Assembly: GCA_013239625.1 (NCBI GenBank)
Contig: MU053216.1
Location: forward strand, 1,118,001 to 1,182,000
Direction: 5' to 3'
DNA: 64,000 nucleotides
Origin: Lama guanicoe
Taxonomy: Eukaryota
Shown here: positions 19,250 through 43,926 of the stretch, one piece after another
Layout: the number at the start of each line of letters is the position of its first letter
How positions within the stretch are numbered: the first letter of the stretch is position 1
Made by a program: the position numbers and the translations under genes
Notes under the pieces: generated by a model
What the model was told of the DNA's origin: nothing
Databases searched by the model: none
Seen by the model: the letters and a program-made list of their open reading frames with translations, nothing else

Positions 19250-21020
19250 GCTGAAGGAAAAGAAAGTGAAGGAGAAACAAAGACTTTTTCAGACAAACAG
19301 TAGCTTAGAGATGCAATGCCAAGAGACCTGCACAGTGTTAAAAGAAATTCCTCAGGCAGAAGAACAAAACACCAGATGGAGATTTTTATCCACAGAAAGG
19401 AACAAAGAGCACTAAAAATAGAAAAATAGAAACAGACTTCTTCCCTCACTTAAAATATCCATAAAAGATAATTCAGTTTAGAGCAGAAATAACAATGTAT
19501 CCAGGGTTTATAATTGAAGCAGAAGTAAAGGGTTTGGCAGGAGCAGCACTGAGGATGGGGGGAGAACCGTCTGCTGGGGGGTTCTCGTGCCCTCCGGGAG
19601 GGCGTGCAGCATTGGAAGGTAAATGGTGATAAATGTTACACCCGGACAAATGCAGAATGTAGCTGGCTGCGTCAGCTCCCCTCTCAGCAACCCAGGGAAC
19701 AAACAAGAATCAGCAAGGACAGAGGAGGCTTGAAGGACACCCTTACCAACGTGACCTTATTGATGTTTGCATAACACTCCACACGACAAACGCAGACACA
19801 TGCTTTTCAAGTGCACAGAGAACATTTAAGATAGACCCGATTTTGAGCCAGGAAACAAGTTTCATTAGATTTAAAAGAGTTCATGTCATAAAAACGTGTT
19901 CTCTAACCACCATAGAATTAATTAAACTAGAAATCAGTAAGGGCTAGCTGGGAAGCCCCACCTCCAACACTGAACAGCACGCTTCCAAGTAAACCATGGG
20001 TAACAGAAGGAATCATAAAATAGATTAGCAAATACCTCGAAGTGAATACAAATAAAAACCACATATGCAAGTTTGTGGAATATAGCTAAAAGAATGTTTA
20101 AAGGAGAATTCCCAGTATCACATGCTCATGTGTTATAAGGGAATAAAGGTCTAAAACGAGTAATCTAAGATTTGACCTTAACAAACTAGGAGGAAAAAGG
20201 AGCAAATTAAACCCAGAGTAAGCGGAAGGAAACAGCAAACGTGACAGCAGAGATGAACGAAATTGAAAGCAGAAGATAGAGAAAAAAAGTCAATGAAACC
20301 AAAAGCTGGTTCTTTGGAAAGATCAATAAGGTTGATAAATCTATAGCCAAATTGATTAAAAATAAAAGAGAGAAGATGCAAATGACCAGCATCAGGAATG
20401 AAAGGAGGGGAGGGTGCAGCTCAGCGGCAGAGTGCGCGCTTAGTGTGCAGGAGGCCCTGGGTTCCAACCTCAGCACCTCTTCCAAAAATGAGTAAATAAA
20501 TAAACCTAGTTGCCTCCCTCTCCCCCCGCAAAAAAAAGAATGAAAGAGAGGTTCTCACTAGAGATCTGACAGATGGTAAAAGGATAGCAAAGGAATATGA
20601 TAAACAACTTTATGCCAATAAATTCAACAGCCTGGATGAAATGGACAAATTCTTTAAAAGTCACAAATTATCAAAGCTCTTTCAAGAAGAAGCGGATAGT
20701 CTAAATAGTTCCACGTATCTATTAAAGAAAACAGAAGAGGAGGAGGGGATGCAGAGCCCAAAGTGGACCTGCATTCACGCGGTCCATTGGTTTTCCACAA
20801 AGTTTCAAGGTAATTCAGTGGAGCAAAGGGAGGTGTCTTTTTTTAAATGGTGCTAGACCAGTGGGATAATCAAAAAAGGAAAGAAGGAAGAAAGCCTGAT
20901 AATTACTTCACATCATATAGAAACTAACTCAGAATGGGTAGACTTGAATGTAAAGACGAAAACCATAAACTTCCAGAGGAAACAGGAGACAACATCTGGG
21001 ACCTGGGGCTAGGCAACTAC
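19250..21020 (+). mobile_element. Old degraded LINE-1 (ORF1 end and ORF2 fragments)
   Basis: A-rich strand; motifs aaactagaaatcagtaa, caatgaaaccaaaagctggttctttggaaagatcaataag, gatgaaatggacaaattc, aaatggtgctag. Confidence 0.88.
20405..20537 (+). mobile_element. tRNA-derived SINE, camelid Vic-1-like, nested in the L1
   Basis: A box (gcagctcagcggcagag), B box (gggttccaacc), aataaataaacc...A tail; TSD GAATGAAAG at 20396 and 20538. Confidence 0.85.
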
Positions 21021-22616
21021 TATTGGTTTACAAATGAGGAACCAGGCATAACCAGGTTAAAGATCACACAGCTAGTTAGTAGCAGAACTAGTCTTCAAAC
21101 CCTGAATTTATTCTCTTCCTGTTCTTGACTGGTGAGGGCTTAGGGGGCTCTGTATGAAAATGAACATAAACCCTGCGGCTGTTTCCTGTCCAGTCCCAGG
21201 AGTGTGCTGGCCCCTCCCGGGGACACAGGACATGCCTGGGAAGTTAGCCAGTGCCCTGATGTCCTGGGCTGCGCTGTCCAAACTAAACCCCTCCCTGTCC
21301 TGGAGCCTAGTCTGCCCTCTCCCGTCTCCATGCCTGTGCAGGGGTCTTCTCCCCACCTGACAGCCCTTCCCCGCCCCTGCCTGCCCACTCCCTCTTATCC
21401 TTCCAAGATGTCACCGCTTCCAGGAAGCCTTCCTTGGTGTAGCCGTAGCATCCTCCTCACCCCAGCTCCTCCGGGCGTTCCAACTTTCTCCCCTAGAGCA
21501 TGTGTCACTTTCTACCTTGGATTAGGCTTCCGGGGTGCAAGTCTTCCCCCTTCCAAAAGGTAGGCACCTTGAGAGTACCTCCCTGCACGGTTCCTGCTCC
21601 AGGCCTGTCAGACATGTGGATGTGTCTCCAGAAGCCACCAAGAGTCAGGCTTTGTTCTTGGGCCTCCTAGGAAGCCAGGTCCCCCCTCCCCAACCCCAGG
21701 GGTTGCAGAAGGGGCTCTTCTCTCGTCCTTGCCGGATGAGCCCTGCCCAGGTCCAGGGGAGCAGGGCACTGGCCGCCCACCCTGCGGAGCCCCCTTCTCC
21801 CTCCTCCCGACACTGCCTTTCCAACCTCTCCAGCTCTGGAAGCTCTGCCTGAGCACTTGTTCCCACTTCCCAGCAAGTGCAGACATCTGTCCTCCAGCCC
21901 CTCATACTTGTGCCCCACCACCACCCTGCAGGCAGGGGGAGGGGAAGCTGGATCCCGGCAGAGGGAGTGAGAACAGACTTGCTCCAGCTCAGTGGGGGCA
22001 GGGAGTAGGGGGGCTCCAGGCCTCAAAGCTGACACACTGGGGAGCTGCGCTCCGCCTTCCCCCTTCCCCCTTCTCTGTGGCCCTGGGGACCGAAGTATCT
22101 CCTAGGAGCCTGGGAGGCTCAGGGGCCAGGCCGTGAGGAGGAATTCGGACCAGAGCTTCTGGCAGTGGTGGTGGGCCCCACAGAGGTCCTTTACTGGAAA
22201 GGGAGGCATCCCGAACCGTCTGTGACACAGGGCCCGCCCGTGACACGGGGCAGCGGGGCTGTGGAGGGCGAGGGGGCCCACAGAGCCCTGAGTAAGGGCC
22301 GAATCCCCACACACCTGCTGGGCCCACAGCGCCAGCCCCACCAAGGGAAGCCTCCGGCTGGGCCCCACGGAATTCCTGCCAGACACAGGTGTGCTGGGGG
22401 CGCCGGGCGAGGACTCAGGACTGCAGATCCCCTCAGCTTCCCCACCCAGGGAACTGACTGCGCAGGCCTGGGCTGCAGAGGAAGAGCCCACTTCCACCCA
22501 GCTCTCCGCCGAGACGGAACCGACCCACCCTCCCAGCGGGAGCTGGTGCAAAGGCCCTTTCCTCCAGCGACTAACCCCAGATTGACACGCGATGATTTGC
22601 TGGAAGCGGCCAATGC

Positions 22617-22622
22617 TTTAAT
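22617..22622 (-). terminator. IGFN1: Polyadenylation signal ATTAAA of IGFN1
   Basis: First AATAAA/ATTAAA-type hexamer I can see, ~420 nt after the stop codon. Confidence 0.7.
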
Positions 22623-23042
22623 GAGGAGAAGCGCGGAGAGCAGCCTTCCCACCCAGGCCCCGCCCTCACCCCACCCCCGCTGTGGTCACGCTGGCCCAGT
22701 CCTCCCCACCCTCCCTTCGGGGCCCAGCCTGGGGAGACCAGGACTCGGCCTCCTTCCTGCAGACACACCCCGGCCCACTGGAGCCCCCAAGCGGGAGGTT
22801 CGCTGCCGTTCGGCTCAGTGACTTAGCCCAGGGCTGGGACACTGAGTGTCCCCTCCTTCTTTCTCTTCCCCAAAACTCCGTGCCCTCCTGGCGTGGCTTC
22901 CCCAGGAGCCCCTGACTCCGGTCTCCCTGGGGCTCTGGGAACTCCAGCGTCCTCCATCCTTTCAGCGTGGTGTCAGGAGTGATGTTTCAGAGATCTTCAG
23001 GGGCTGCAGGGCTGAGCGAGGCCATCGCAGGGGGAGGCGGGG

Positions 23043-23056
23043 CTAGGGGTTAGATT
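23043..23056 (-). CDS. IGFN1: IGFN1 exon 24 coding part (ESNP*)
   Basis: Strong acceptor ctctgtatctttgcag|AA TCT AAC CCC TAG, in phase 1. Confidence 0.85.
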
Positions 23057-23727
23057 CTGCAAAGATACAGAGCAAAGGTCAATGTGACACTGCAGGGGTC
23101 AGGTGGGCTGGGGGTAGGGTGGGGGTGGCTTGACCATCCAGGGTGTTCAGATCCATCCACGGCCACCACGTGCTCTCCACCTCCAGACAAGGTTCTTCCC
23201 TGTCCCCTCAGGCAACCCAGACCATCCCTAACACCAGGTTTGCTCATGGGCTGGGCACTTTGGATGCCCCAGAGAGACAAGATGTTCCTTCCAGGGCTGA
23301 AAGGGCCATTTCTGCACCAAGGTCAATTCTGAATCTTTTAAAATGTTTAGGACTTTTCCTTAAGTGTAAGTTGTTATTGGGGGGAAATGTTACCTTATTA
23401 ACATATGCAATTTGCTTTCCTGAAAAGGGGACCACCAGTGAGAGAACCAAGGTGGCTGTGGGGCACTAGGTGTCTGTCTCTGGGCGTAGTTACGAGCTTT
23501 AATGCAGAAAAGCCTCTTGTCTCCCACTTGAACTGGGCGGCAAGGCCGCACCGGGAAGCTTAGCTGGGGGACACGGAGCCCTTGAGCCAAGAGCTGCTCA
23601 CCAGTGATCTGTCACTGGGCTGTACAGACGGGCAAGCCAAGGCCCCTCTGGGACAGAGGTTACATAACAGAGTCCGCGGAGAGCCAGGCGGAGGTCCCTG
23701 CTGTTCCGATCCCAGCCCATCACTCTA

Positions 23728-24312
<585 letters not shown>

Positions 24313-24483
24313 TTAAAATACATTTTGAATTTTTTTTCCTGTACTACAAGCTAACACATATTCACTGTGGACACATTCGGAACAGACAGGAAATCAGGAG
24401 GAGGAATCGAAGCCAAGCACAATCTAACCGCCCACCGACAACCACGGCTAACATTTCGGGGTGGAACCTTGCAGACATTTCTA

Positions 24484-25311
<828 letters not shown>

Positions 25312-25617
25312 TCATTCACTTTGGCTCCTAAGTTCGATGCCCCAGGACAAGGACAGAGTGGGGGCTTTTGGAAGACCAGGTGGTGGTCCTCATTTCTGAG
25401 TTCGAGAAACCCCTCCGGGGCGGGGGCTGGGAGACACCACCTGCACCCCGGGTGAGGACCACAGACCGTTCTCCCCACTGCTGTCTCAAGCGATGTGGTG
25501 GTGGTGACCATCTGCACTCACTGACCCCAAGTGAGGAACAAGTGGAGTCCGAGGAGGGCGTGGGGCAGAGCAGTGATCCCCTGGACTCTCCCTGGGCCCT
25601 CCTCCTTCCTCCCTTCA

Positions 25618-26127
<510 letters not shown>

Positions 26128-26724
26128 TTAAGGGCCCCGCATGTCACATACAGACGTCTGGATTCCCCCTCTGAGCCATGAGCTGCTGTTGTAAGGTTGG
26201 AACAGGAAGTCAGAGTCAGATCTAGATTCACATGGCGAGGGTTGGGGGCTGAGGACCTGATGGGAGTGGGGACAACTCATGGGGCGGGAGTGGGGACCAG
26301 CCCGGTGCCCAGGCTCAAGTAGGGATGGCCTGGGGCCCCTGCAGTAGTCCAGGCAGGAGAGTGTGGCGGCCTGACCCTGACCAGGGTTGGGGGCCAGTCC
26401 AGCTGCCTGATGTCTGTGCCACCAACTCCCATGAGACCCTCAGCACTGGGCACACTAGTCCCATGGGGATGGTGACGGTGACTTACCCACAGGATTGTCT
26501 GAGGACTCAAGAAGTTACCAATATATGGGGAACACAGAGAACAGGGCCCGAGACAGAGCAAATGCTCGGTGTGTCTTAAATATTTTTGTCATAATGACCA
26601 TCGGCATGTTTATGGTCTAATATTTAAGGACATGTAATTTAGGGGTAGATCTGGGTGTGCTTCTGGCTCTGCCACCTATGAGCTTCCTGGACAGATGTTG
26701 ATGATGCTGGTGGTGGAGATTCTA

Positions 26725-26965
26725 ACAACAGCAGTAATAGTAACGATGGTGGGTAAGACGCATGGCCACTTGCCATCTGCCCAGCACTGTTTATGTGCTT
26801 TCAAGTTTTAATTCCGTGAATCCTCAGAACAAGCCTTTGAGATAAGTTACTATTATTACCCCCATTTGATAGACGAGGATGTCGGAACACAGAGAGGTTA
26901 AGATACTTGTCCAAAGACACACAGCTTGTGAGTGTGACATCAGAGTTTGAATCCAGGCCACCTGT
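26725..26965. mobile_element. MIR SINE
   Basis: Core: attattacccccatttgatagacgagga...acagagaggttaagatacttgtccaaagacacacagct...tttgaatccagg. Confidence 0.88.
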
Positions 26966-27352
26966 GCGTCTCACCACACGCTGGGCTGCTCTACTACACG
27001 TACAGAGACCGGTGGCGCTGCCTGAGGACTCTCCTGAGCCAGACACAGGCCAGGTGTGCGCACAACATGCACCCTGAAGTCCAAGGGCATTGCCCCAGCC
27101 CCTGGGGGCCAAGGTTTAGAGGTGCAGTACTGGAGGCTACCACCAGAGGGAGTCACAGATGCCAGCAGAATGGCTGCCCAGCGGCCAGGGGAGGGCTGCC
27201 CCTGCCCGGAGGACTCCCTCCTCCCTTCCTCACCTGCCTGATTTCCAGTACAAGCCCAGGTCACTGACTCGGGGCCAGAGGGAACCAACCGGGAAGAAAG
27301 GAGAACCACACAGCTGAGTCGGCCCCCACTCCAGCCCACTAGGTGTGCTCAC

Positions 27353-27441
27353 CTCAAAGTAGACAGGCACGCGAACAGTGTCCCCAGCTCTGACCGTCAT
27401 CGAGTCCTTCATGGTGGCGTCCATGAGGAACTTGGGACAGA
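27353..27441 (-). CDS. IGFN1: IGFN1 exon 20 (VCPKFLMDATMKDSMTVRAGDTVRVPVYFE)
   Basis: ttcag|TC acceptor, GAG|GTGAG donor; 89 bp, phase 1-0. Confidence 0.94.
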
Positions 27442-28009
27442 CTGAAACACGCAGGACGGCTCATCACCTCCTGGTGCAGGTGAGCCCCAGCCCCCGGTCA
27501 CCAACCAGGCAGGGCTGGAGGGGGCGCCCAGCCAGCCTGGTGATGATGGACGGGGGCCCTGTGGGAACTGGAGAGGGGGCTGGAGGGGACCGCGGGGAGC
27601 TGAGCGCAGGAGTGGGAGGGGTCCAAGAAGGAGCAGGTCAGGGAGAGCCTCGCGTCAGGCCGGAGCAGAGGAGGACGGTGCGAAACCAGGCCAACTCTTG
27701 CACTTGGTGGGTGAGGCAACTACCCATGGGACCCCTGGAGTCAGGGGCAGAGCCAGAACCAGGCTCCAGGCTCTGGACAGCAGAGCAGGGAGAGCTTCAC
27801 TGCAGGTATGTCTCCCCCGCGTGACGCAGGGACAACTGGGGTCTGTTAGGATGGCCCAGTGTCAGCTTGGCCAAACACAGGGTAGCTGTTCCAGCAATGA
27901 GGGCCCCAGAGCAAGGGCAGCCCCCCTCCCAGTGACAGGGCTGTGGCGCCTTCTGCTCTGGCCTGAGCGCGCGGGCTGAGGGCGGCCTGCTCAGGCCGTG
28001 CTTGCGAAG

Positions 28010-28215
28010 CAGCACAGCCCTGGAGCCTGGGCTCTGGGCTCAGCCACCTGGCTCAAACCCTGCTCTGCCACGTACCAGTGGTGAGCCCCAGGGCAAAGGA
28101 CCTCCGACCTCAGTTTCCTTGTCTGTAAACTGGGGACAGTATTGACCTTGCATGATTGTCATGAGTTATAATGAAAATGCATCTCCCCTGAAAAGGGCCT
28201 GCCTTGCCCACTGCC
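28010..28215. mobile_element. MIR fragment
   Basis: ctctgccacgtaccag...cctcagtttccttgtctgtaaactgggga. Confidence 0.65.
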
Positions 28216-28241
28216 CAGATCCTACCCCCGACACTTCACTA

Positions 28242-28682
<441 letters not shown>

Positions 28683-29962
28683 CTAGAGACCCTCTGGACA
28701 CTCGCTGGTTTCTGTGGGCGGCTGGGGATTCCTTTTACTCAGGGACTGGTCTTGCTCTGGGCTTCCCTGATGCCCCTGCCTGGACCCAGATCCTTCCTCC
28801 GTCCCCAGGATCTTCTGCAGTCTACACCCCCATCCCAGCTCACCTCCTCCAGGAAGCCTTCCCTACCTCCTTCCACTCATTTGCCAGCCTGCCAGCCCCC
28901 TTCCCCAACAGCCCTTCTGTAATTCCTGAAATCTGGGATTTTAGTTGATGAGTCGGTAAGTCCTTAGGTTCCAAGATCCTTGAAGACTAGAATTCTGTAT
29001 CTTTTTGTCCTGAGCTGTAAGCTCCTAGCCTAGACTGCCTTGTGGGCACTCAGTCCATACTTTGTGCTCTTTACCTTAGAATGGCAACGATTGCTGTGCA
29101 ACCCCCCCCCCCCCCGCCGAGGGCTCAGGACAGAGGGCTGATGTGTGTAAATGGCTCTGTACACTGCACAGGGTCCAGGGCTCTGGGCTCCAAACCTGGG
29201 GATCCACCTGCCCGGCCCCCAGCCCCCCCGGCTCTCTCCAGGGCCCACGGCCTCTTCCCCAGGGCCTGGCTGACACGGGAGGTTCAGGAACGGGCTGCAT
29301 CCCCGTCCCTGAGTGACTGGCTGGTCACTCAGGCAGAGAGGAGGGGTGCACGGAGCCCCATTTGCCTTGGAGGGAGGCTTTGATGGGTGTGTTTGTGGAA
29401 AGGTATTCTCTGCTCACGTTTGGGAAATTTGGATCAAACAAAATTGGGGAGGCTTCTTTACTGTAGGACCTGTCAGGGCCGCGTTGACCGCGGACCTCCT
29501 CTGCTGTCCCTGCTGCCCTCGCCACACCTGCGGTGCCTCTGGGTGCCTGGTGTTCCCCAGACAGTGGGCAGGGCGGTGCTGCTCTAAACCAGAAGTTCCT
29601 GAAGGATTCACCTGGGTCTTGGCACGATGCCAGCCCCTGGCAGGTGACGAGCGGTCACTCCGTGGACACAGAATGGGTGGTGAGGCTCTCCCATGACACC
29701 CCTCCCCGTGGGGTGACGACCCCTCACTGGGGTGAGTGGATGCTCCCAGGACTGGGACCGAGTGAGCGGAGTCATCTAGGGAGGGGCACTTGGAATTCCC
29801 ACTGTGGGGCCCCCGGCCTGTCTGATCTCAGTGTAGGGGCTGAAACCTCCCCGGGCCCCTAAGCTAGCTGCAGGGCCCTTCCACATTTACCTCGCAGCCC
29901 TCCCGACGCTTCCTCAGGGACTGGTCCTGGCCGGGGGCCTCCCGTCCCCTCCCACTGGCTTA

Positions 29963-30235
<273 letters not shown>

Positions 30236-30822
30236 TCAGGGCTGGGATCCCTGTCTGGCTCTGCCGCGGACTTGCTGGGATGTCTCGGGCAAGCGCCTTA
30301 ATCCCTCTGGCTCTCTCTGCCCTAGAGCTGTTGGAAGAGCGCCCCCAGTCCCCTTCCCTCTTTGCGGAGATGTGAGGCCATGAGAGGCCCCGCCCGGCGC
30401 CCACCCAGCCTGCCCAGTGCCCGAGCCCCTTCTTTCTCCTGCAACCTGGGCTTGGGCTTTTCTGAGTTTGTTCTGGTCTCAGAAGGTGGTTCCTTGGGAT
30501 CTACGTAGTGGGGCAGGGACACCCCCCTCCCCTAGTGTATGGACAAGGAAGCTCAGATTAGGCAGAAGAGGGAGCTGCCCGGGGTGGAGGAGAGGGTCCA
30601 GGGGTTCCCTGGCTTCCATCCTGGGACTGTGTTAAACCAGGGTCTCCCACCCCCGCTGTCACTGACATTCTTGTGCGGGGAGAGGCAGGGGTTGCCCCCC
30701 CCCCGTGTTGGGGGATGGGCCACTGCATCCTGGCTCCTTCACATGAGAGGCCACCCCCATCTTTCTGGTCTTCGGTCAGCCCAGAATTGCTGCACGCTGC
30801 TGAATGCCCCCGGGGCGAATCA

Positions 30823-31176
<354 letters not shown>

Positions 31177-31573
31177 CTACACACGGTCCCTTCCTGGGCA
31201 GTGTCAGGGGCCTGAGCCGGCCTGCAGTTTGGGGGCAGGAGTGACAGAAACAGGGAAGCACGTGGCCAGGGGTCTAGCTCCCACACTGAGGTCCCTCAGC
31301 CCGGTCCCCTAGGAGACACTCCAGCTGGGGTCATCTGCTGGAGGATGATGCCAGGCCCGCCCAGGGTCCTGAGAGAGTGGCTCTGCTGGTCCGCTGCTGC
31401 CCCACAGAGCCACAGCCGGGAGGAGGCCCCACGCGTCGGGCCGGCTGCTCCAGCCGCCGGGGCCCGGCGGGGCTGGGGTAAGGCGTCTCACGGTGCCCTC
31501 CGATGGGTGGCCTCGAGTCGCGCAGCCTCTCGGCAGACCAGCCTGGCCTCCGGGCACCGTGGGGGGCCCCTCA

Positions 31574-32173
<600 letters not shown>

Positions 32174-32288
32174 TCAGGGCTGGGTCCCACCGCCCACCCC
32201 GGCGACCACCCCAGGGCCTGGTGTGTTAGCTGCAGGGAAATTTCCCCGTGGCGGGAGCCTGGCCCTTCATCTAAACTGCCTCTTCCTA

Positions 32289-33114
<826 letters not shown>

Positions 33115-33204
33115 TTACGGACACAGAGGAGCTGGTCATCCCACCCCTGTCCAGCTGCTCCTGCCACCAGCCTGGGCCTTTACTGATGCAACTGAGGGAA
33201 TGGA

Positions 33205-33400
33205 CTGACCGCTCATCATGTGTCAGGCTGGTGCCAACCACCACCCCCCTGGCCTGTGTTCAGTGCCTCATTAATGGTTCCAGTGACCTGATGAAGCAGG
33301 TACTCTGAGTTGACCCATTTCACAGATGGGGAAACCAGAGGCCATGTCAGTGGTTAATGGCCGAGCTGGGGTCAGCCAGGTCCAGCTGTGCTCTGAAGCA
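33205..33400. mobile_element. MIR fragment
   Basis: cccatttcacagatggggaaaccagaggc. Confidence 0.6.
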
Positions 33401-33813
33401 CTGTGACGTACACCCTCCTGAGATGACGACTAGAAGGGGGCTGCTCAGAGAAAGAAGAGCCTGTCCGGCTGGGCTGAGAATATAGCATTTGTACAGGACC
33501 TTGAAGGACAGGTAGACCTCAGTGGGGGCTGGGACAGGAAGGCAGTTTGGGTGGTAGAGGGTGGGCAAGGGGTGTGTTTAGGGAGGAGTGAGTGGGGTAC
33601 CCACCCATTTTAAAATCACTTTTATTTTAAGCACACCAAGTTGTTGGCTATTTAAGCTTCTCCCCGAGTAGGTGTGTTGGTACAACAAGGAATGAAAGCT
33701 CTTTGTTGCAAAGCCCCTCCCCTCTCCTTCCCTCCCCTCCCCCCCCCTCCCCTCCCCTCCTCTGCTTCACCCGTCCCAGCCCGCAGACTGGTCCGTGAAG
33801 CCGGGGGCAGTAC

Positions 33814-33938
33814 CTTGACACCATCCTTAAACCAGGCTCCAGGCCCCAGGTCACGGGTGAGGGTGCAGGAGAGCACGGCGTCCTCCCCCTGCTGCACCTC
33901 CGTGTCAGCCAGGCCCTGGGAGAAGTGGCCTGCGGGGC
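33814..33938 (-). CDS. IGFN1: IGFN1 exon 13, copy 2 (identical duplicate)
   Basis: Same 125 bp and same splice sites, offset by 213 bp. Confidence 0.85.
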
Positions 33939-34026
33939 CTGGGGAGACACAGGGGAGAGTCGGACTCCCCTCCTCTGCTTCTCCCCTCCCAGCCCGCAGA
34001 CTGGTCCGTGAAGCCGGGGGCAGTAC

Positions 34027-34151
34027 CTTGACACCATCCTTAAACCAGGCTCCAGGCCCCAGGTCACGGGTGAGGGTGCAGGAGAGCACGGCGTCCTCCC
34101 CCTGCTGCACCTCCGTGTCAGCCAGGCCCTGGGAGAAGTGGCCTGCGGGGC
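34027..34151 (-). CDS. IGFN1: IGFN1 exon 13, copy 1 (GPAGHFSQGLADTEVQQGEDAVLSCTLTRDLGPGAWFKDGVK)
   Basis: ccccag|GC acceptor, AAG|GTACTG donor; 125 bp, phase 1-0. Confidence 0.88.
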
Positions 34152-34634
34152 CTGGGGAGACACAGGGGAGAGTCGGGGCCAGGCACTCAGGGATCCCCCA
34201 CGGCCCAGCCTCCTAGGCCACGGCCTGTGCGGCACCCTGGGAGGCCACATGTCCTGCCACCTGGGCTCAGCCGGTGCCAGCAGGGCCAGACCGCCCATTT
34301 TTCTCTGCAGGGCCTAGGCTGGTGCTGGAGATCTGGGGTGCAACGTAAGTGATGGGCCTTGGAGTCACGCAGAGGGAAGTCTGGGTAACCCTCAGAGAGT
34401 TAGTTCAGCAACTCAGTGCTTTGGACATAGGGTATCAAGACAGACACCCAGGAGGGTGCTGAGCCCCGCAGCCGGGATCCCACCTGCACAGGAGGAAGAG
34501 GCTGCTTCCTAAATTGGGAAATGAGCACTGGCAATGGGAAGCACTGATGGGGGCAAACTCCTGGGGCTGGAGGCAGGTTAGGGACCGGCCCAGGCACCCC
34601 AGTGTCCAGAGAGTGTCCCTGGAACAACACCTAC

Positions 34635-37600
34635 CTCGAGCCTCCTCGGAGAAACCACCAGCGCCAGGCTTGTGTCTGGATCTGGGACTGCGGGCGGCAT
34701 CGCTTCTCTGGCCATGGGCGTCCAACCCGCCCTCTTGGCCGCCTCTCCTGCTGCCAGCATGGCTCGGGGGCTCCCCCGGGCACACCCCATCCTCTCCTCC
34801 AGGCAGCTGCTCCAGGCCTCTCGTTGCTGGTCCAACCTCGACCCTTGACCACGTCTGAGTCCTACTCCTGAATGGGCCGGGCCTCCTTTCTGGCCCGCCA
34901 GACTCCTCTGCACCACGGCCCTCATGCTCCTTTAGGGCACCTGGACCTTGGGCTCTGTCATCCTCAGCCTCCAGGGATGCCTGCCCCACTAGGGACCCCC
35001 TTCCTCCCCTCTGTCCTTTTTCCAGCTGCGAGCCAGGCCCCTGGATCCCCCCTGATCTGTCTGCAGAGTCTTTTCTGCCAAGGAGACCACCTAGGCCCTC
35101 CCTGGCTCCCTGGCGCCCCAGACCCCCAGGCTTCTGGGTGGGGTCATTCTCCCCCTCCGCAGAAGCCCCCCTTCTCGGGACACCTGCGTCCCCTGGGCCG
35201 CTAGCCCTGCCCCGTCCCAGACCAGAAGCTTTGCCATCCAGAAACCCTGGGCTTTGCCCACCCCAGCCCCCAGAACCCTCAGGCCCTTCATGGGACCCCC
35301 CAAAAGTGGCATCTTCCTCCTGCCGGGAGCTTGAAACCCTGGAGCCTGGGGGCCCACCCCTGGCACCCGTGCTTCCTTGGCCAGACCCCTGGTCTTCCCA
35401 GCCTGGGCCCCAAGAGTCGCTGATCCCACGCCCATCAGCAGACCCTAGCATTGATTCGCCCATTTTCCTGGGCATCTGGCCGCTGTCTAGACTGTGGCCT
35501 GCACCTGCTGAGCCCCCCACCCCTGCCCCAATCCTCCTGCCTCCCAGGGGTGTGGTCCCAGGACCCTGAGGTCCCAACCCACCCTGGCCAGTTGCTGGAT
35601 CCCCGTCTGCTGTCCCTGGCCCTGCTTCCCAGAAGTCAGGATCACGCTGTGATTCCAGAGCAGCGGTCCCTGCCCAGGTCTTGCCCTGCACTGCCCCCGG
35701 ACCATCAGGAAACCCAGAAGCTCCCACACCCCTTGCACGGCCTGCAGCCCTGCCCTTCTCACTGGGAGCCTCTCTGTACCCAGGGGACTCTCGGAGTCCA
35801 GAGCCCTTCTGCCGCCCTCTGATGCCTGACTGTCCCTCAGAGCCAATAGCCCCCAGCGCCTCAGGGCTGCCCAAGGAGCCAGAGGCCCCCAAGCCACTTA
35901 CAGAGCCCTTCCCATCCAAAAGAGCCTGCGGTCCTTCGTGAGTGCCCTGCATCCCCAGGCCCCTGGGGCCGTCCCCCTGTGCTGTGCCATCTGCGGTGCC
36001 CACTGTTCCAGCCTTCCTGGAGCCCAGCCCAGCACCTGCCCCTCCCATGAGCCCCGTCCCGCTGCCCCTCTCTGGACCATCCTTGGGGCCTGTGCCACCA
36101 TAAGACCCCTCTGATGCTGACCAGTATCCTGGCTGGTGCCCCCTGGCTTCTTGACCTCTGGGTCCACCCTCATGTCCCATTCCAGCCAGTGAGTCTGTTA
36201 CTCCAAACCTCCCTGAACCATCTCTGCAGCCCATCTCACCCCCTGGGCCTTTCCCACCAGATCCTCTCGAGTCTCCCCTATAATCTCCTTTACTCCCTGA
36301 CCCTATTCCTCTAAGACCCCCTGATCCATCCCTGTAACCTGCCTCACCCCCTGCCCCTACGTCCCCAGAACCCCCTAAACCATCCCTGTAACCAGCCTCA
36401 CCCCTTGACCCCATTCCTCTAAGACCCCCTGAACTACCCTTATACCCTGCCTCACCCCCTAACCCTACTTCCCCAGAACCCCCTACACCATCCCTGTAAC
36501 CAGCCTCACCCCTTGACCCCATTCCTCTAAGACCCCCTGAACTACCCTTATACCCTGCCTCACCCCCTAACCCTACTTCCCCAGAACCCCCTACACCATC
36601 CCTGTAACCAGCCTCACCCCTTGACCCCATTCCTCTAAGACCCCCTGAACTACCCTTATACCCTGCCTCACCCCCTAACCCTACTTCCCCAGAACCCCCT
36701 ACACCATCCCTGTAACCAGCCTCACCCCTTGACCCCATTCCTCTAAGACCCCCTGAACTACCCTTATACCCTGCCTCACCCCCTAACCCTACTTCCCCAG
36801 AACCCCCTACACCATCCCTGTAACCAGCCTCACCCCTTGACCCCATTCCTCTAAGACCCCCTGAACTACCCTTATACCCTGCCTCACCCCCTAACCCTAC
36901 TTCCCCAGAACCCCCTACACCATCCCTGTAACCAGCCTCACCCCTTGACCCCATTCCTCTAAGACCCCCTGAACTACCCTTATACCCTGCCTCACCCCCT
37001 AACCCTACTTCCCCAGAACCCCCTACACCATCCCTGTAACCAGCCTCACCCCTTGACCCCATTCCTCTAAGACCCCCTGAACTACCCTTATACCCTGCCT
37101 CACCCCCTAACCCTACTTCCCCAGAACCCCCTACACCATCCCTGTAACCAGCCTCACCCCTTGACCCCATTCCTCTAAGACCCCCTGAACTACCCTTATA
37201 CCCTGCCTCACCCCCTAACCCTACTTCCCCAGAACCCCCTACACCATCCCTGTAACCAGCCTCACCCCTTGACCCCATTCCTCTAAGACCCCCTGAACTA
37301 CCCTTATACCCTGCCTCACCCCCTAACCCTACTTCCCCAGAACCCCCTACACCATCCCTGTAACCAGCCTCACCCCTTGACCCCATTCCTCTAAGACCCC
37401 CTGAACTACCCTTATACCCTGCCTCACCCCCTAACCCTACTTCCCCAGAACCCCCTACACCATCCCTGTAACCAGCCTCACCCCTTGACCCCATTCCTCT
37501 AAGACCCCCTGAACTACCCTTATACCCTGCCTCACCCCCTAACCCTACTTCCCCAGAACCCCCTACACCATCCCTGTAACCAGCCTCACCCCTTGACCCC

Positions 37601-40600
37601 ATTCCTCTAAGACCCCCTGAACTACCCTTATACCCTGCCTCACCCCCTAACCCTACTTCCCCAGAACCCCCTACACCATCCCTGTAACCAGCCTCACCCC
37701 TTGACCCCATTCCTCTAAGACCCCCTGAACTACCCTTATACCCTGCCTCACCCCCTAACCCTACTTCCCCAGAACCCCCTACACCATCCCTGTAACCAGC
37801 CTCACCCCTTGACCCCATTCCTCTAAGACCCCCTGAACCATCCTTATACCCTGCCTCACCCCCTGACCCCCCCTCCCCGGAACCCCCTACACCATCCCTG
37901 TAACCAGCCTCACCCCCTGACCCCACCTCCCCAGAACCCCCTAAACCATCCCTGTAACCAGCCTCACCCCTTGACCCCATTCCTCTAAGACCCCCTGAAC
38001 TACCCTTATACCCTGCCTCACCCCCTCACCCCACCTCCCCAGAACCCCCTAAACCATCCCTGTAACCAGCCTCACCCCTTGACCCCATTCCTCTAAGACC
38101 CCCTGAACTACCCTTATACCCTGCCTCACCCCCTCACCCCACCTCCCCAGAACCCCCTAAACCATCCCTGTAACCAGCCTCACCCCTTGACCCCATTCCT
38201 CTAAGACCCCCTGAACTACCCTTATACCCTGCCTCACCCCCTCACCCCACCTCCCCAGAACCCCCTAAACCATCCCTGTAACCAGCCTCACCCCTTGACC
38301 CCATTCCTCTAAGACCCCCTGAACTACCCTTATACCCTGCCTCACCCCCTCACCCCACCTCCCCAGAACCCCCTAAACCATCCCTGTAACCAGCCTCACC
38401 CCTTGACCCCATTCCTCTAAGACCCCCTGAACTACCCTTATACCCTGCCTCACCCCCTCACCCCACCTCCCCAGAACCCCCTAAACCATCCCTGTAACCA
38501 GCCTCACCCCTTGACCCCATTCCTCTAAGACCCCCTGAACTACCCTTATACCCTGCCTCACCCCCTCACCCCACCTCCCCAGAACCCCCTAAACCATCCC
38601 TGTAACCAGCCTCACCCCTTGACCCCATTCCTCTAAGACCCCCTGAACTACCCTTATACCCTGCCTCACCCCCTCACCCCACCTCCCCAGAACCCCCTAA
38701 ACCATCCCTGTAACCAGCCTCACCCCTTGACCCCATTCCTCTAAGACCCCCTGAACTACCCTTATACCCTGCCTCACCCCCTCACCCCACCTCCCCAGAA
38801 CCCCCTAAACCATCCCTGTAACCAGCCTCAGCCCCTGCCCCCATCCCTCTGAGACCCCCCGAACCACTTCTAAAGCCTGCTTCACTGCTTGGCTCCCTCC
38901 CCTCAGGCCCAAGACCCCTTGACCTTCCTCCATAAGCTGTTTCACCTCCTATTTGCTGAGGTCCTGGAATTCCTGATCCATCCCCATAACCCAGCACTTT
39001 GCCTGACCCAGAAGCCCCCCAGCTCTCAGAAGGCATCCCAGCGTGAGAAGCCAGTGCCTTGGGGCGCCTGGCATCGTCCAGGTAGCCAGAGCCTGCTCTA
39101 GAGGCCCCGTCCCCATCACTCACTCTGCCTGCTGCGCTCAGGGGCCCTGAGCCCCCAGGGCCGTCTTTGTGGCCTCCTTCTCTGGAGGCTCCGAGGCCCC
39201 CGTGATCTGCATCCCGACTCCAAGGCCCTCCTCTTCTAGAGCCCCCTGGTTCAGCTCCTGCATGCCCATGGCCCTCCCCAGCAGTTCCCACAGTGACAGG
39301 GGACCCGAGGCCACCTCTACCCACAGAGCCTGCTGTCCCAGGACTCCCCAGACCACCATTGGGACGACGCCCTCGCACGGGGCCGGTGTCCCCCCCGCTT
39401 CCGGATACAGCCCTGGCCCCTGCACGCAGCCCAGCTTCACCCTCCGGCCCTCCGTCAGGGCCACCTGAGCCACTCTGGAGACTGGAAAGTCCCTCAGACC
39501 CGCTTCTGCCAGGACCGTAACCATCCTGGCTTCCAGGCCACATTCCTCCGAGCACCAGTGACCCATGCCTGTAACCAGCGCCCTTGTCAGATTCTGTCCC
39601 AGGCGCCCCAGAGGCCACTTGCCAACCAGCAGGACCAGATCCCACTCCTCCTGGCCCCCCTGAGCCATCACTAGCTGTCCAGGCTTGAGAATGCTGCGGG
39701 CTTCTAGAATCTTCCCCAGCCTCACCAGAGGCCCCTGCCGTCTCCCGGCCTGCCCTTCCCCTGAGCCCCTGTAGGCCCGTTTCCCAGCCCTTGGGACCCC
39801 CTGGACCCCCAGCACCTGCCTCCTGCAGTGAGCCCTCCCAGCCACTGCCTCCAGCTTCCCCCAGGCCAGTCCCACTTCCCCAGGCTGCCCTCGAGGCTCC
39901 TCTGCCCACTTTCCTGCTCAGACTACCCCTTCCCTCCATCTCATCCAGGCTGTCCCCCTGCAGAATCCTCTCCGTCCCTTCCCCTCCTGACCAAGACCCC
40001 AAGGGATCAGCCTGGGATCCCCGCAGGGCCTGCGTTCCCATCCCAGGTCCCAGCTGAGCGCCCCAGGGCCGCTCCAGGCCATGCCCGTCCAGTCGGCTCC
40101 CATGGTCCTGTCTGGGCTCCTTCCCTTCCCCGCTGCGCCCCCGTCCTCCCACCTGAGGATGCCCGGACCCTGCCTCCCAGCTTCCCGCCATGCCAGCATA
40201 TCTGTCCCCTTCTCTGTCTCTGCTAGCGTCTTGCTGCTGCCCTTCCGGGAGGCCCAGCCCTGATCCCAGGCCCTCCCTCTGCGGACGGGGAGCCCCTGGA
40301 AGGCTCCCGGCCCCACCTTTCTCTCTATGGAGCTGATCTTCCCCAAGAGGAGTGACTCTGCCCTCTTCTTCCAGGAAGCCCTCTCTTGCCTGCCCAGGGC
40401 CCCAGGCTGAGTCAGCTGCCTCCTCGACCTCCATCAGGGAGAAGCCGTGCCCACCCAGGCCACCTCTGTCTGGGCTGGCTGTGCGCCCGGATGCCAGCCT
40501 GGGCTCCTGGAGGGAGACCCCCATGGGGTCCTGCTCTCTGGGTCTCCCCTCCTCGCCTCGGACGCTCCTGGAATCTTCTGGGGTCTGGGCTCCCTGTGCC

Positions 40601-40649
40601 TGCAGCTGGCGGTCAGTGCTTGCGGCCAGAAGGCTTTTATCCTTCCCAG
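34635..40649 (-). CDS. IGFN1: IGFN1 giant exon 12 (Gly-rich disordered region), interrupted by 8 in-frame TGA codons
   Basis: aaag|CT GGG AAG GAT (AGKDK) start and CGA G|GTAGG end; 6015 bp, phase 1-1. ORFs 38782..40524 and 34435..37980 share one frame and are separated only by TGA-bearing repeat units. Confidence 0.88.
36300..38880 (-). repeat. Coding minisatellite: 108-bp unit (2 x 54-bp monomers; 36 aa MGSRGEAGYRDGVGGSGEVGLGGEAGYKGSSGGLRG), about 24 units
   Basis: 13 identical B units (ATGs from 37818 to 36414 at 108-bp spacing), a 162-bp transitional segment, and 8 A units carrying TGA. Confidence 0.97.
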
Positions 40650-43304: not shown

Positions 43305-43926
43305 CAGATGGTCCCTGACTTGACAATGGTTTGGCTTGTTTTGCTTTGACTTTACGACGGTGCGAAAGCGATACACATTCAGTAGAAACCGTACTTGGAG
43401 TCTGGAATTTCAGTCTTTCCCAGGCTAGCGATAGTGGTGCTGGGCAGCCCCAGCCCCAGCCCCAGCCCCAGCCCCAGCCCCAGCCCCAGCCCCAGCCCCA
43501 GCCCCAGCCCCAGCCCCAGCCCCAGCCCCAGCCCCAGCCCCAGCCCCAGCCCCAGCCCCAGCCCCAGCCCCAGCCCCAGCCCCAGCCCCAGCCCCAGCCC
43601 CAGCCCCAGCCCCAGCCCCAGCCCCGGTCAGCCCCGCGCTCACGGGGCAAACCACCGATGCACGGAGAACCGCTCCGTAGCAGACAACCGCCTGGTTTCC
43701 ACTTTCGGTGTAGCAATTAACAGACTCCAGGAGACACTCAACTCTGTGATGAAGCAGGCTTTCTGTTGGGTGCCTTTGCCCAGCACAGGCTGGTGTGAGT
43801 GCTCCGGGCACGGCGACGGTCGCTAGGCTGAGCTATGGGGTTTGGTAGACTAGGTGTATTGAACGTAGTTTTGACTTACAAAGGGTTTCTCAGGATGTAC
43901 CCCCACCGTAGGTCGAGGAAGATCTG
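43305..43926. mobile_element. Tigger5/MER47-like TcMar DNA transposon, intron 9
   Basis: Imperfect terminal inverted repeats CAGATGGTCCCTGACTT...AGGTCGAGGAAGATCTG followed by TA; internal sequence resembles the recalled MER47/Tigger5 consensus. Confidence 0.8.
43445..43624. repeat. Perfect hexanucleotide microsatellite (CAGCCC)30, i.e. (GGGGCT)n on the IGFN1 sense strand
   Basis: 180 bp of uninterrupted repeat. Confidence 0.98.

Follow-up and report, generated by a model that had tools for sequence, protein, structure and literature searches.

Tandem homologous exons that carry splice signals and exclude one another have been described as tandem duplicated exon substitution (PMC9741552; 10.1101/133215), and for exons 4a/4b of OGDH (PMC7969005). 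As these sources present them, the known exclusive pairs are mostly ancient, conserved and diverged, and their commonest enforcement is a frameshift followed by decay, given for 60% of 629 human clusters (10.1101/133215). Competing RNA structures born of exon duplication have been proposed (PMC6071210). According to PMC1557585, splicing of F7 takes the furthest upstream of its identical donors, and among the gamma-globin tandem donor duplications cited there the proximal copy was used in one study set, the globin results being in conflict. The hallmark of short-range template switching is given as an imperfect inverted repeat made perfect (PMC7954356), and Pol theta repair is described as typically leaving short, patchwork-like junctions close to G4 motifs (PMC12426944). 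False duplications in assemblies arise, in the account of PMC9516828, where copies differ by heterozygosity or read error, and when both copies sit on the same scaffold a gap usually lies between them. IGFN1, the gene considered here, encodes a muscle protein with 3 N-terminal and 8 C-terminal domains around a disordered segment (PMC5493368).

In the assembled sequence of a 64,000-nt stretch of Lama guanicoe DNA (the window), one IGFN1 exon is present twice in tandem, and at this level the duplication is confirmed. Direct repeats of 212 nt each (copy 1, 33752-33963; copy 2, 33965-34176; neither assigned to a strand) match at a period of 213 except at 33769/33982 and 33773/33986, with a single extra base at 33964 between them. 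The exact core of the repeat is 190 nt, as against 12-16 nt in 20 shuffles of 20000-36000, which excludes a chance repeat; with copy 2 removed, the longest exact repeat of that region was 15 nt. Outside two arrays, it is the sole exact repeat of such kind in the 64 kb. At 33769 and 33773, copy 1 probably carries the state of the one-copy allele, as judged from two unlisted differences in each of two sets of contigs considered below, and the junction patch (33964-33986, no strand assigned), made up of the extra base and the two substitutions of copy 2 at 33982 and 33986, would then be the only sequence foreign to that allele.

The two exon copies on the minus strand are each 125 nt long, 100% identical, and flanked by AG and GT. 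The copy that is upstream in transcript order (34027-34151, minus strand) has the native acceptor and splice joints at both ends in RNA run X15, and the downstream copy (33814-33938, minus strand) has the native downstream intron and an acceptor context of only 25 nt. Between them lies an 88-nt GT-AG spacer (33939-34026, minus strand; 68% GC) that is in frame when retained. A single copy joined to exon 14 is in frame, splicing of both copies shifts the frame so that a stop is met at 130 nt of the next exon (141 nt), with many exons still to come before the last junction, and reading through the spacer gives a stop-free exon of 338 nt that adds 71 aa. A preliminary description of this DNA had claimed a recent 213-bp tandem repeat with two differing positions, identical 125-bp exon copies, a half-Ig domain within them and this same frame arithmetic, and all of these were borne out, the copies having the same tandem order and phase and the splice dinucleotides being present. 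Its statement that the splice sites are intact held for AG and GT at both copies and needs qualifying for the acceptor, of whose native sequence only 25 nt was duplicated. In the long IGFN1 form this exon is number 12 among the coding exons; its earlier label of exon 13 would fit human IGFN1 numbering.

By its coding sequence the gene is identified as IGFN1. The best annotated matches of the exons were camelid IGFN1 models, with 1 mismatch in 342 aa to each of two alpaca-cluster models (P0006 and P0135) and 7 in 342 aa to a Camelus-like model (P0134), which marks the animal as a South American camelid. The duplicated exon encodes the N-terminal half of an Ig domain (Pfam I-set positions 2-43 of 90), and the next exon (32971-33111, minus strand, 141 nt) encodes the C-terminal half of the same domain (I-set 41-86 of 90, a weak match). 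A PDB search returned generic Ig domains alone. The mouse 'Igfn1 exon 13' knockout was considered as a lesion of the same exon and rejected; as described in PMC5493368, it targets part of the second N-terminal domain. The preceding exon is a giant one of about 6 kb (34635-40649, minus strand) with a 108-bp repeat array and a donor used in X15.

Several other features of the gene were recorded. The 108-bp coding array (36298-38864, minus strand) has an in-frame TGA in 8 consecutive units, from 38784 to 38028, and the rest of the 6-kb exon is open in a single frame. Camel long isoforms have S or L at the TGA positions, and their array is open and irregular. The array of the window contains blocks of 7 and 13 letter-identical units. 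No long IGFN1 isoform closer than 95% was found, both alpaca-cluster models being the short form, and the TGA units reflect either a long isoform truncated in this animal or lineage or a homogenised consensus. In the short camelid models the interior of the giant exon (34753-40600, minus strand) is left out, a point near 40600 being joined to 34752 with an apparent GC donor instead of GT. A very GC-rich Fn3 exon (24781-25098, minus strand) is open in the window and garbled or skipped in several camelid database models; compared with XP_072804355.1, two adjacent residues differ in this exon and one in the last exon. A perfect (CAGCCC)30 run at 43445-43625, in an IGFN1 intron, forms a long G-quadruplex motif on the transcribed strand.

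Presence of the duplication in relatives was assessed in DNA, RNA and proteins. Four of 24 runs were compared with the window, three of DNA and one of RNA. DNA run X3 did not cover this region; the other two DNA runs (X1 and X2, with different organism labels and from different studies) were informative, and in each a single contig ran from the CCCCT tract through the exon into 33965-34700, so that both carry the one-copy allele. No junction piece occurred in the X1 or X2 contigs, in a type of comparison from which rare variants get dropped; contigs to the left of the tract had been removed by a filter, and holes there are no proof. The contigs of each run had 2 unlisted differences, which we place at 33982 and 33986 because differences close to piece ends go unlisted. 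Among 14 DNA runs, the best share of sampled words was 0.94 (204 words), compared with 0.940-0.958 expected when the 53 junction words and the tract variant are missing and about 0.97 for a carrier missing only the tract words; this agrees with absence of the junction, as a consistency check and not as proof. In RNA run X15, one exon copy was spliced at exactly the predicted ends. Its intronic letters differ from the window at 13 of 400 positions, which makes X15 another, diverged camelid and silent on the duplicated allele.

Among proteins, one exon copy was found in 113 of 115 long proteins, all of them IGFN1 (the other 2 being obscurin-like 1), and in 46 of 46 long IGFN1 isoforms; none of these 159 full-length IGFN1 proteins contains the exon twice or carries the read-through peptide. 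Each of the 11 camelid protein models has one copy. Since a second genomic copy could hide behind gene models, the proteins exclude only an annotated read-through form. Doubled scores of P0001-P0003 were considered as a sign of two copies and rejected as an effect of the query, each having one copy. The peptide VLPPASRTSLR, for which the preliminary description had proposed a search, occurs in 0 of 220 proteins (174 + 46), and none of 17 intron read-through ORFs of other mammals recovered by protein search has the spacer peptide. A scan of JGI metagenomes for a 22-base motif adjoining the junction gave 0 matches and was uninformative. Literature searches turned up no report of this duplication, and IGFN1 has 0 occurrences in the main texts of PMC9741552, PMC9013439 and 10.1101/133215, the supplements of which could list it. 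The earlier proposal to look for the duplication in related species thus returned one copy in X1, X2 and 11/11 camelid models. Judged by the relatives examined, the duplication is not a feature of the lineage and is either a rare new mutation or an assembly error.

The letters at the junction bear on this choice. The left breakpoint lies in a (CCCCT)n-type tract (33714-33763, minus strand), the longest pure pyrimidine/purine run of the window, with a G-quadruplex motif on the transcribed strand. The tract holds several imperfect units, and 33743 is C in the window and T in X1 and X2, which is either an allelic difference or a consensus error. A 7-bp inverted repeat, formed by 33752-33758 and 33951-33957 (plus strand; also 34164-34170), brackets the duplicated segment. 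Only three bases are peculiar to the junction, and we infer that a fold-back template switch from one inverted-repeat end to the other, next to the G-rich tract, could account for them. The extra base at 33964 closes a 4-bp fold-back stem, equalled by 47 of 1498 null joins, and in a template-switch check a reverse-complement template within 100 nt could explain the two substitutions, no other of 12 purine-to-pyrimidine options forming so stable a DNA hairpin and the observed pair standing within 14 of 2700 possible pairs; an adjacent direct repeat unit matches as well. The junction base brings no gain in overall hairpin energy (T scores -13.0 vs -12.5), and the DNA junction hairpin was equalled in stability by 22 of 200 shuffles, these hairpin statistics being post hoc and the folding taking in no G-quadruplexes. 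The two substituted letters also rebuild the CTCCCCT unit of the neighbouring tract, so that a consensus error pulled to the tract would yield the same letters.

In the proposed order of events, replication would stall close to the G-rich/(CCCCT)n tract; once the exon had been copied through to 33963, the nascent strand would fold back on its purine-rich end, re-prime at 33752 via the 7-nt match, and copy the exon again. The outcome resembles the template-switching and Pol theta insertions described in PMC7954356 and PMC12426944 in having clustered changes by which an inverted repeat becomes perfect, and a 23-nt patchwork beside a G-quadruplex motif. It differs from the cases presented there, which are small clusters and insertions mostly below 25 bp, in that the patch accompanies a 190-bp exact tandem copy.

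Because no reads support the junction, an assembly error has to be weighed first among the alternatives, and we give it a considerable share of the probability, well short of an even chance. Overlapping reads, contigs or haplotypes would have been set end to end at a low-complexity, G-quadruplex-prone tract, yielding a false exon gain in which the second piece begins with errors or haplotype letters; a library chimera would give the same picture. Agreeing with this are the absence of the junction from every run examined and the coincidence of the breakpoint with the ends of independent short-read contigs of X1 and X2. Simple repeats are described as the main short-read assembly breaks and G4 motifs as a cause of errors (PMC7757076), and the identical array blocks with 8 stop-bearing units nearby may reflect a homogenised consensus. 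The locus is like the false exon gains documented in PMC9516828 in its adjacent near-identical exon copies, their absence from other data and the hard-to-sequence DNA around them, and unlike the typical case given there in having no gap between the copies (unless one was filled). The two differences between the copies had been taken to argue against an assembly echo. That argument fails, since false exon gains with differing copies are on record in the same source, and the two differences cannot exclude an echo. Against an artefact stand the base accuracy elsewhere in the window, which is high (the aligned IGFN1 coding stretches show no frameshift relative to XP_072804355.1, and the 6-kb giant exon is in one frame), the fit of a fold-back template to the junction letters, and the uniqueness of this exact repeat in the 64 kb outside two arrays. 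Should the duplication be an artefact, it would caution against taking a duplication as proven because its copies differ at two positions, and annotation of the locus should take one copy.

The window holds 0 N, and its freedom from gaps, its high base accuracy and junction letters that fit a fold-back together make a real, rare allele likelier than an artefact. We therefore regard a real allele as probable, and one that is both real and rare as rather probable. The explanation that we favour, with somewhat better than even confidence, is a real, very young, rare and probably private duplication of a single exon in one South American camelid, of fold-back origin and usually spliced with one copy.

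How such an allele would be spliced depends on its two acceptors, which by their sequence are not equivalent, only the upstream copy retaining the full native intron. The native branch-point candidate CTGAG (A at -36) falls outside the duplicated segment, and the spacer carries 8 AGs upstream of the downstream-copy acceptor. RNA folding of the last 52 nt of the spacer predicted -31.2 kcal/mol, with 1 of 200 shuffles as stable, compared with -12.3 kcal/mol at the native acceptor, where 180 of 200 shuffles were as stable. The predicted junction hairpin covers the polypyrimidine tract of the downstream copy, both substituted bases pairing with the tract directly, and of the 17 acceptors compared, this tract has the lowest predicted unpaired probability (0.10). 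Close to it come two used IGFN1 acceptors (0.11 and 0.17), and when spans of 300 nt are allowed the predicted pairing flips onto the upstream acceptor, so that silencing of the second acceptor is a prediction of the fold. The predicted burial of the tract and the missing best branch-point motif make normal, one-copy splicing the likeliest course: the downstream acceptor, lacking the native branch-point motif and with its tract paired in the junction hairpin, would usually be skipped, giving normal protein. Given a real allele, a main product with one copy and normal protein has, on this model, about an even chance; inclusion of both copies with decay, which would make a null allele, is doubtful, and a main product that reads through the spacer and gains 71 aa is unlikely.

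With the second acceptor silent, two identical donors would compete. The arrangement is like the F7 intron 7 minisatellite described in human in PMC1557585, in that identical 5' splice sites lie in series behind one acceptor, and unlike it in that the F7 repeats are 37 bp long and contain no acceptor, whereas 213 nt, including a whole exon, separate the IGFN1 donors. Joining the native acceptor to the second donor would give the read-through exon, whose product would gain half an Ig domain without its partner half, plus a linker of 30 aa, at the end of the disordered region and before an intact Ig domain, and might be tolerated. As the main new product of a real allele, this form is open in frame, would escape decay, and finds a parallel in the proximal gamma-globin donor use cited in PMC1557585; the F7 preference for the upstream donor in that source and the absence of the peptide from 220 proteins weigh against it, and taken as an explanation of the locus as a whole we consider it improbable. 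Of the read-through isoform suggested by the preliminary description, the open frame has thus stood, as a possible choice between two identical donors, and the protein search gave it no match.

The duplication looks like what a mutually exclusive pair of homologous exons would start from, but does not belong to that class. It shares with the systems of PMC9741552, 10.1101/133215 and PMC7969005, as described there, a tandem arrangement of homologous exons with splice signals, a muscle Ig/Fn3 gene and a frame shift on joint inclusion. In contrast to those mostly ancient and diverged pairs, the IGFN1 copies are identical, which makes them indistinguishable in spliced reads, and absent from the relatives tested; the pair is also without a distant branch point or a steric arrangement of the OGDH type (PMC7969005). 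Predicted competing pairings between the arms change with the span allowed. They recall the model of PMC6071210, in which complementary intronic arms duplicated with an exon give alternative pairings. As set out there, one intronic stem arm is copied and competes for a docking site, whereas in IGFN1 the duplication took in both arms, the polypyrimidine tract of the acceptor itself serves as one of them, and only across the new junction does the strongest predicted local pairing form; literature searches found no competing structures with the acceptor tract as one arm. The earlier reading of a nascent mutually exclusive pair, taken as common or fixed and functional in the lineage, is mostly unsupported and very improbable: although double inclusion frameshifts as in most human clusters (10.1101/133215) and competing pairings like those predicted here have been proposed as the seed of such pairs (PMC6071210), one copy is present in X1, X2 and the camelid models, the identical copies encode identical protein and hence no distinct isoform or functional pair, the second acceptor is not equivalent, both introns are GT-AG with no U2/U12 mismatch, and by motif scan the proximal branch candidate lies 67 nt from the donor (beyond the 50-nt steric limit) and the sole yUnAy, at +18, has 8 AGs between it and the acceptor.

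A real, rare, newly arisen duplication would be an intragenic variant in a muscle gene of one camelid, doing no harm where a single copy is spliced and making a null allele where both are. It would offer a natural test, at zero divergence, of how the spliceosome treats a freshly duplicated exon, and also of whether the cause of a mutation silences the copy that it makes. We tentatively raise, as a possibility of modest weight, that a real duplication was silent from its birth, the same purine/pyrimidine inverted repeat (the acceptor tract on one side of the exon and G/A-rich intron on the other) having driven the template switch and now folding over the new acceptor. If so, a single sequence feature would both give rise to a duplicated exon and hold it neutral, competing structures would exist from the outset, and the locus would show, in its first generation, how mutually exclusive exons can begin.
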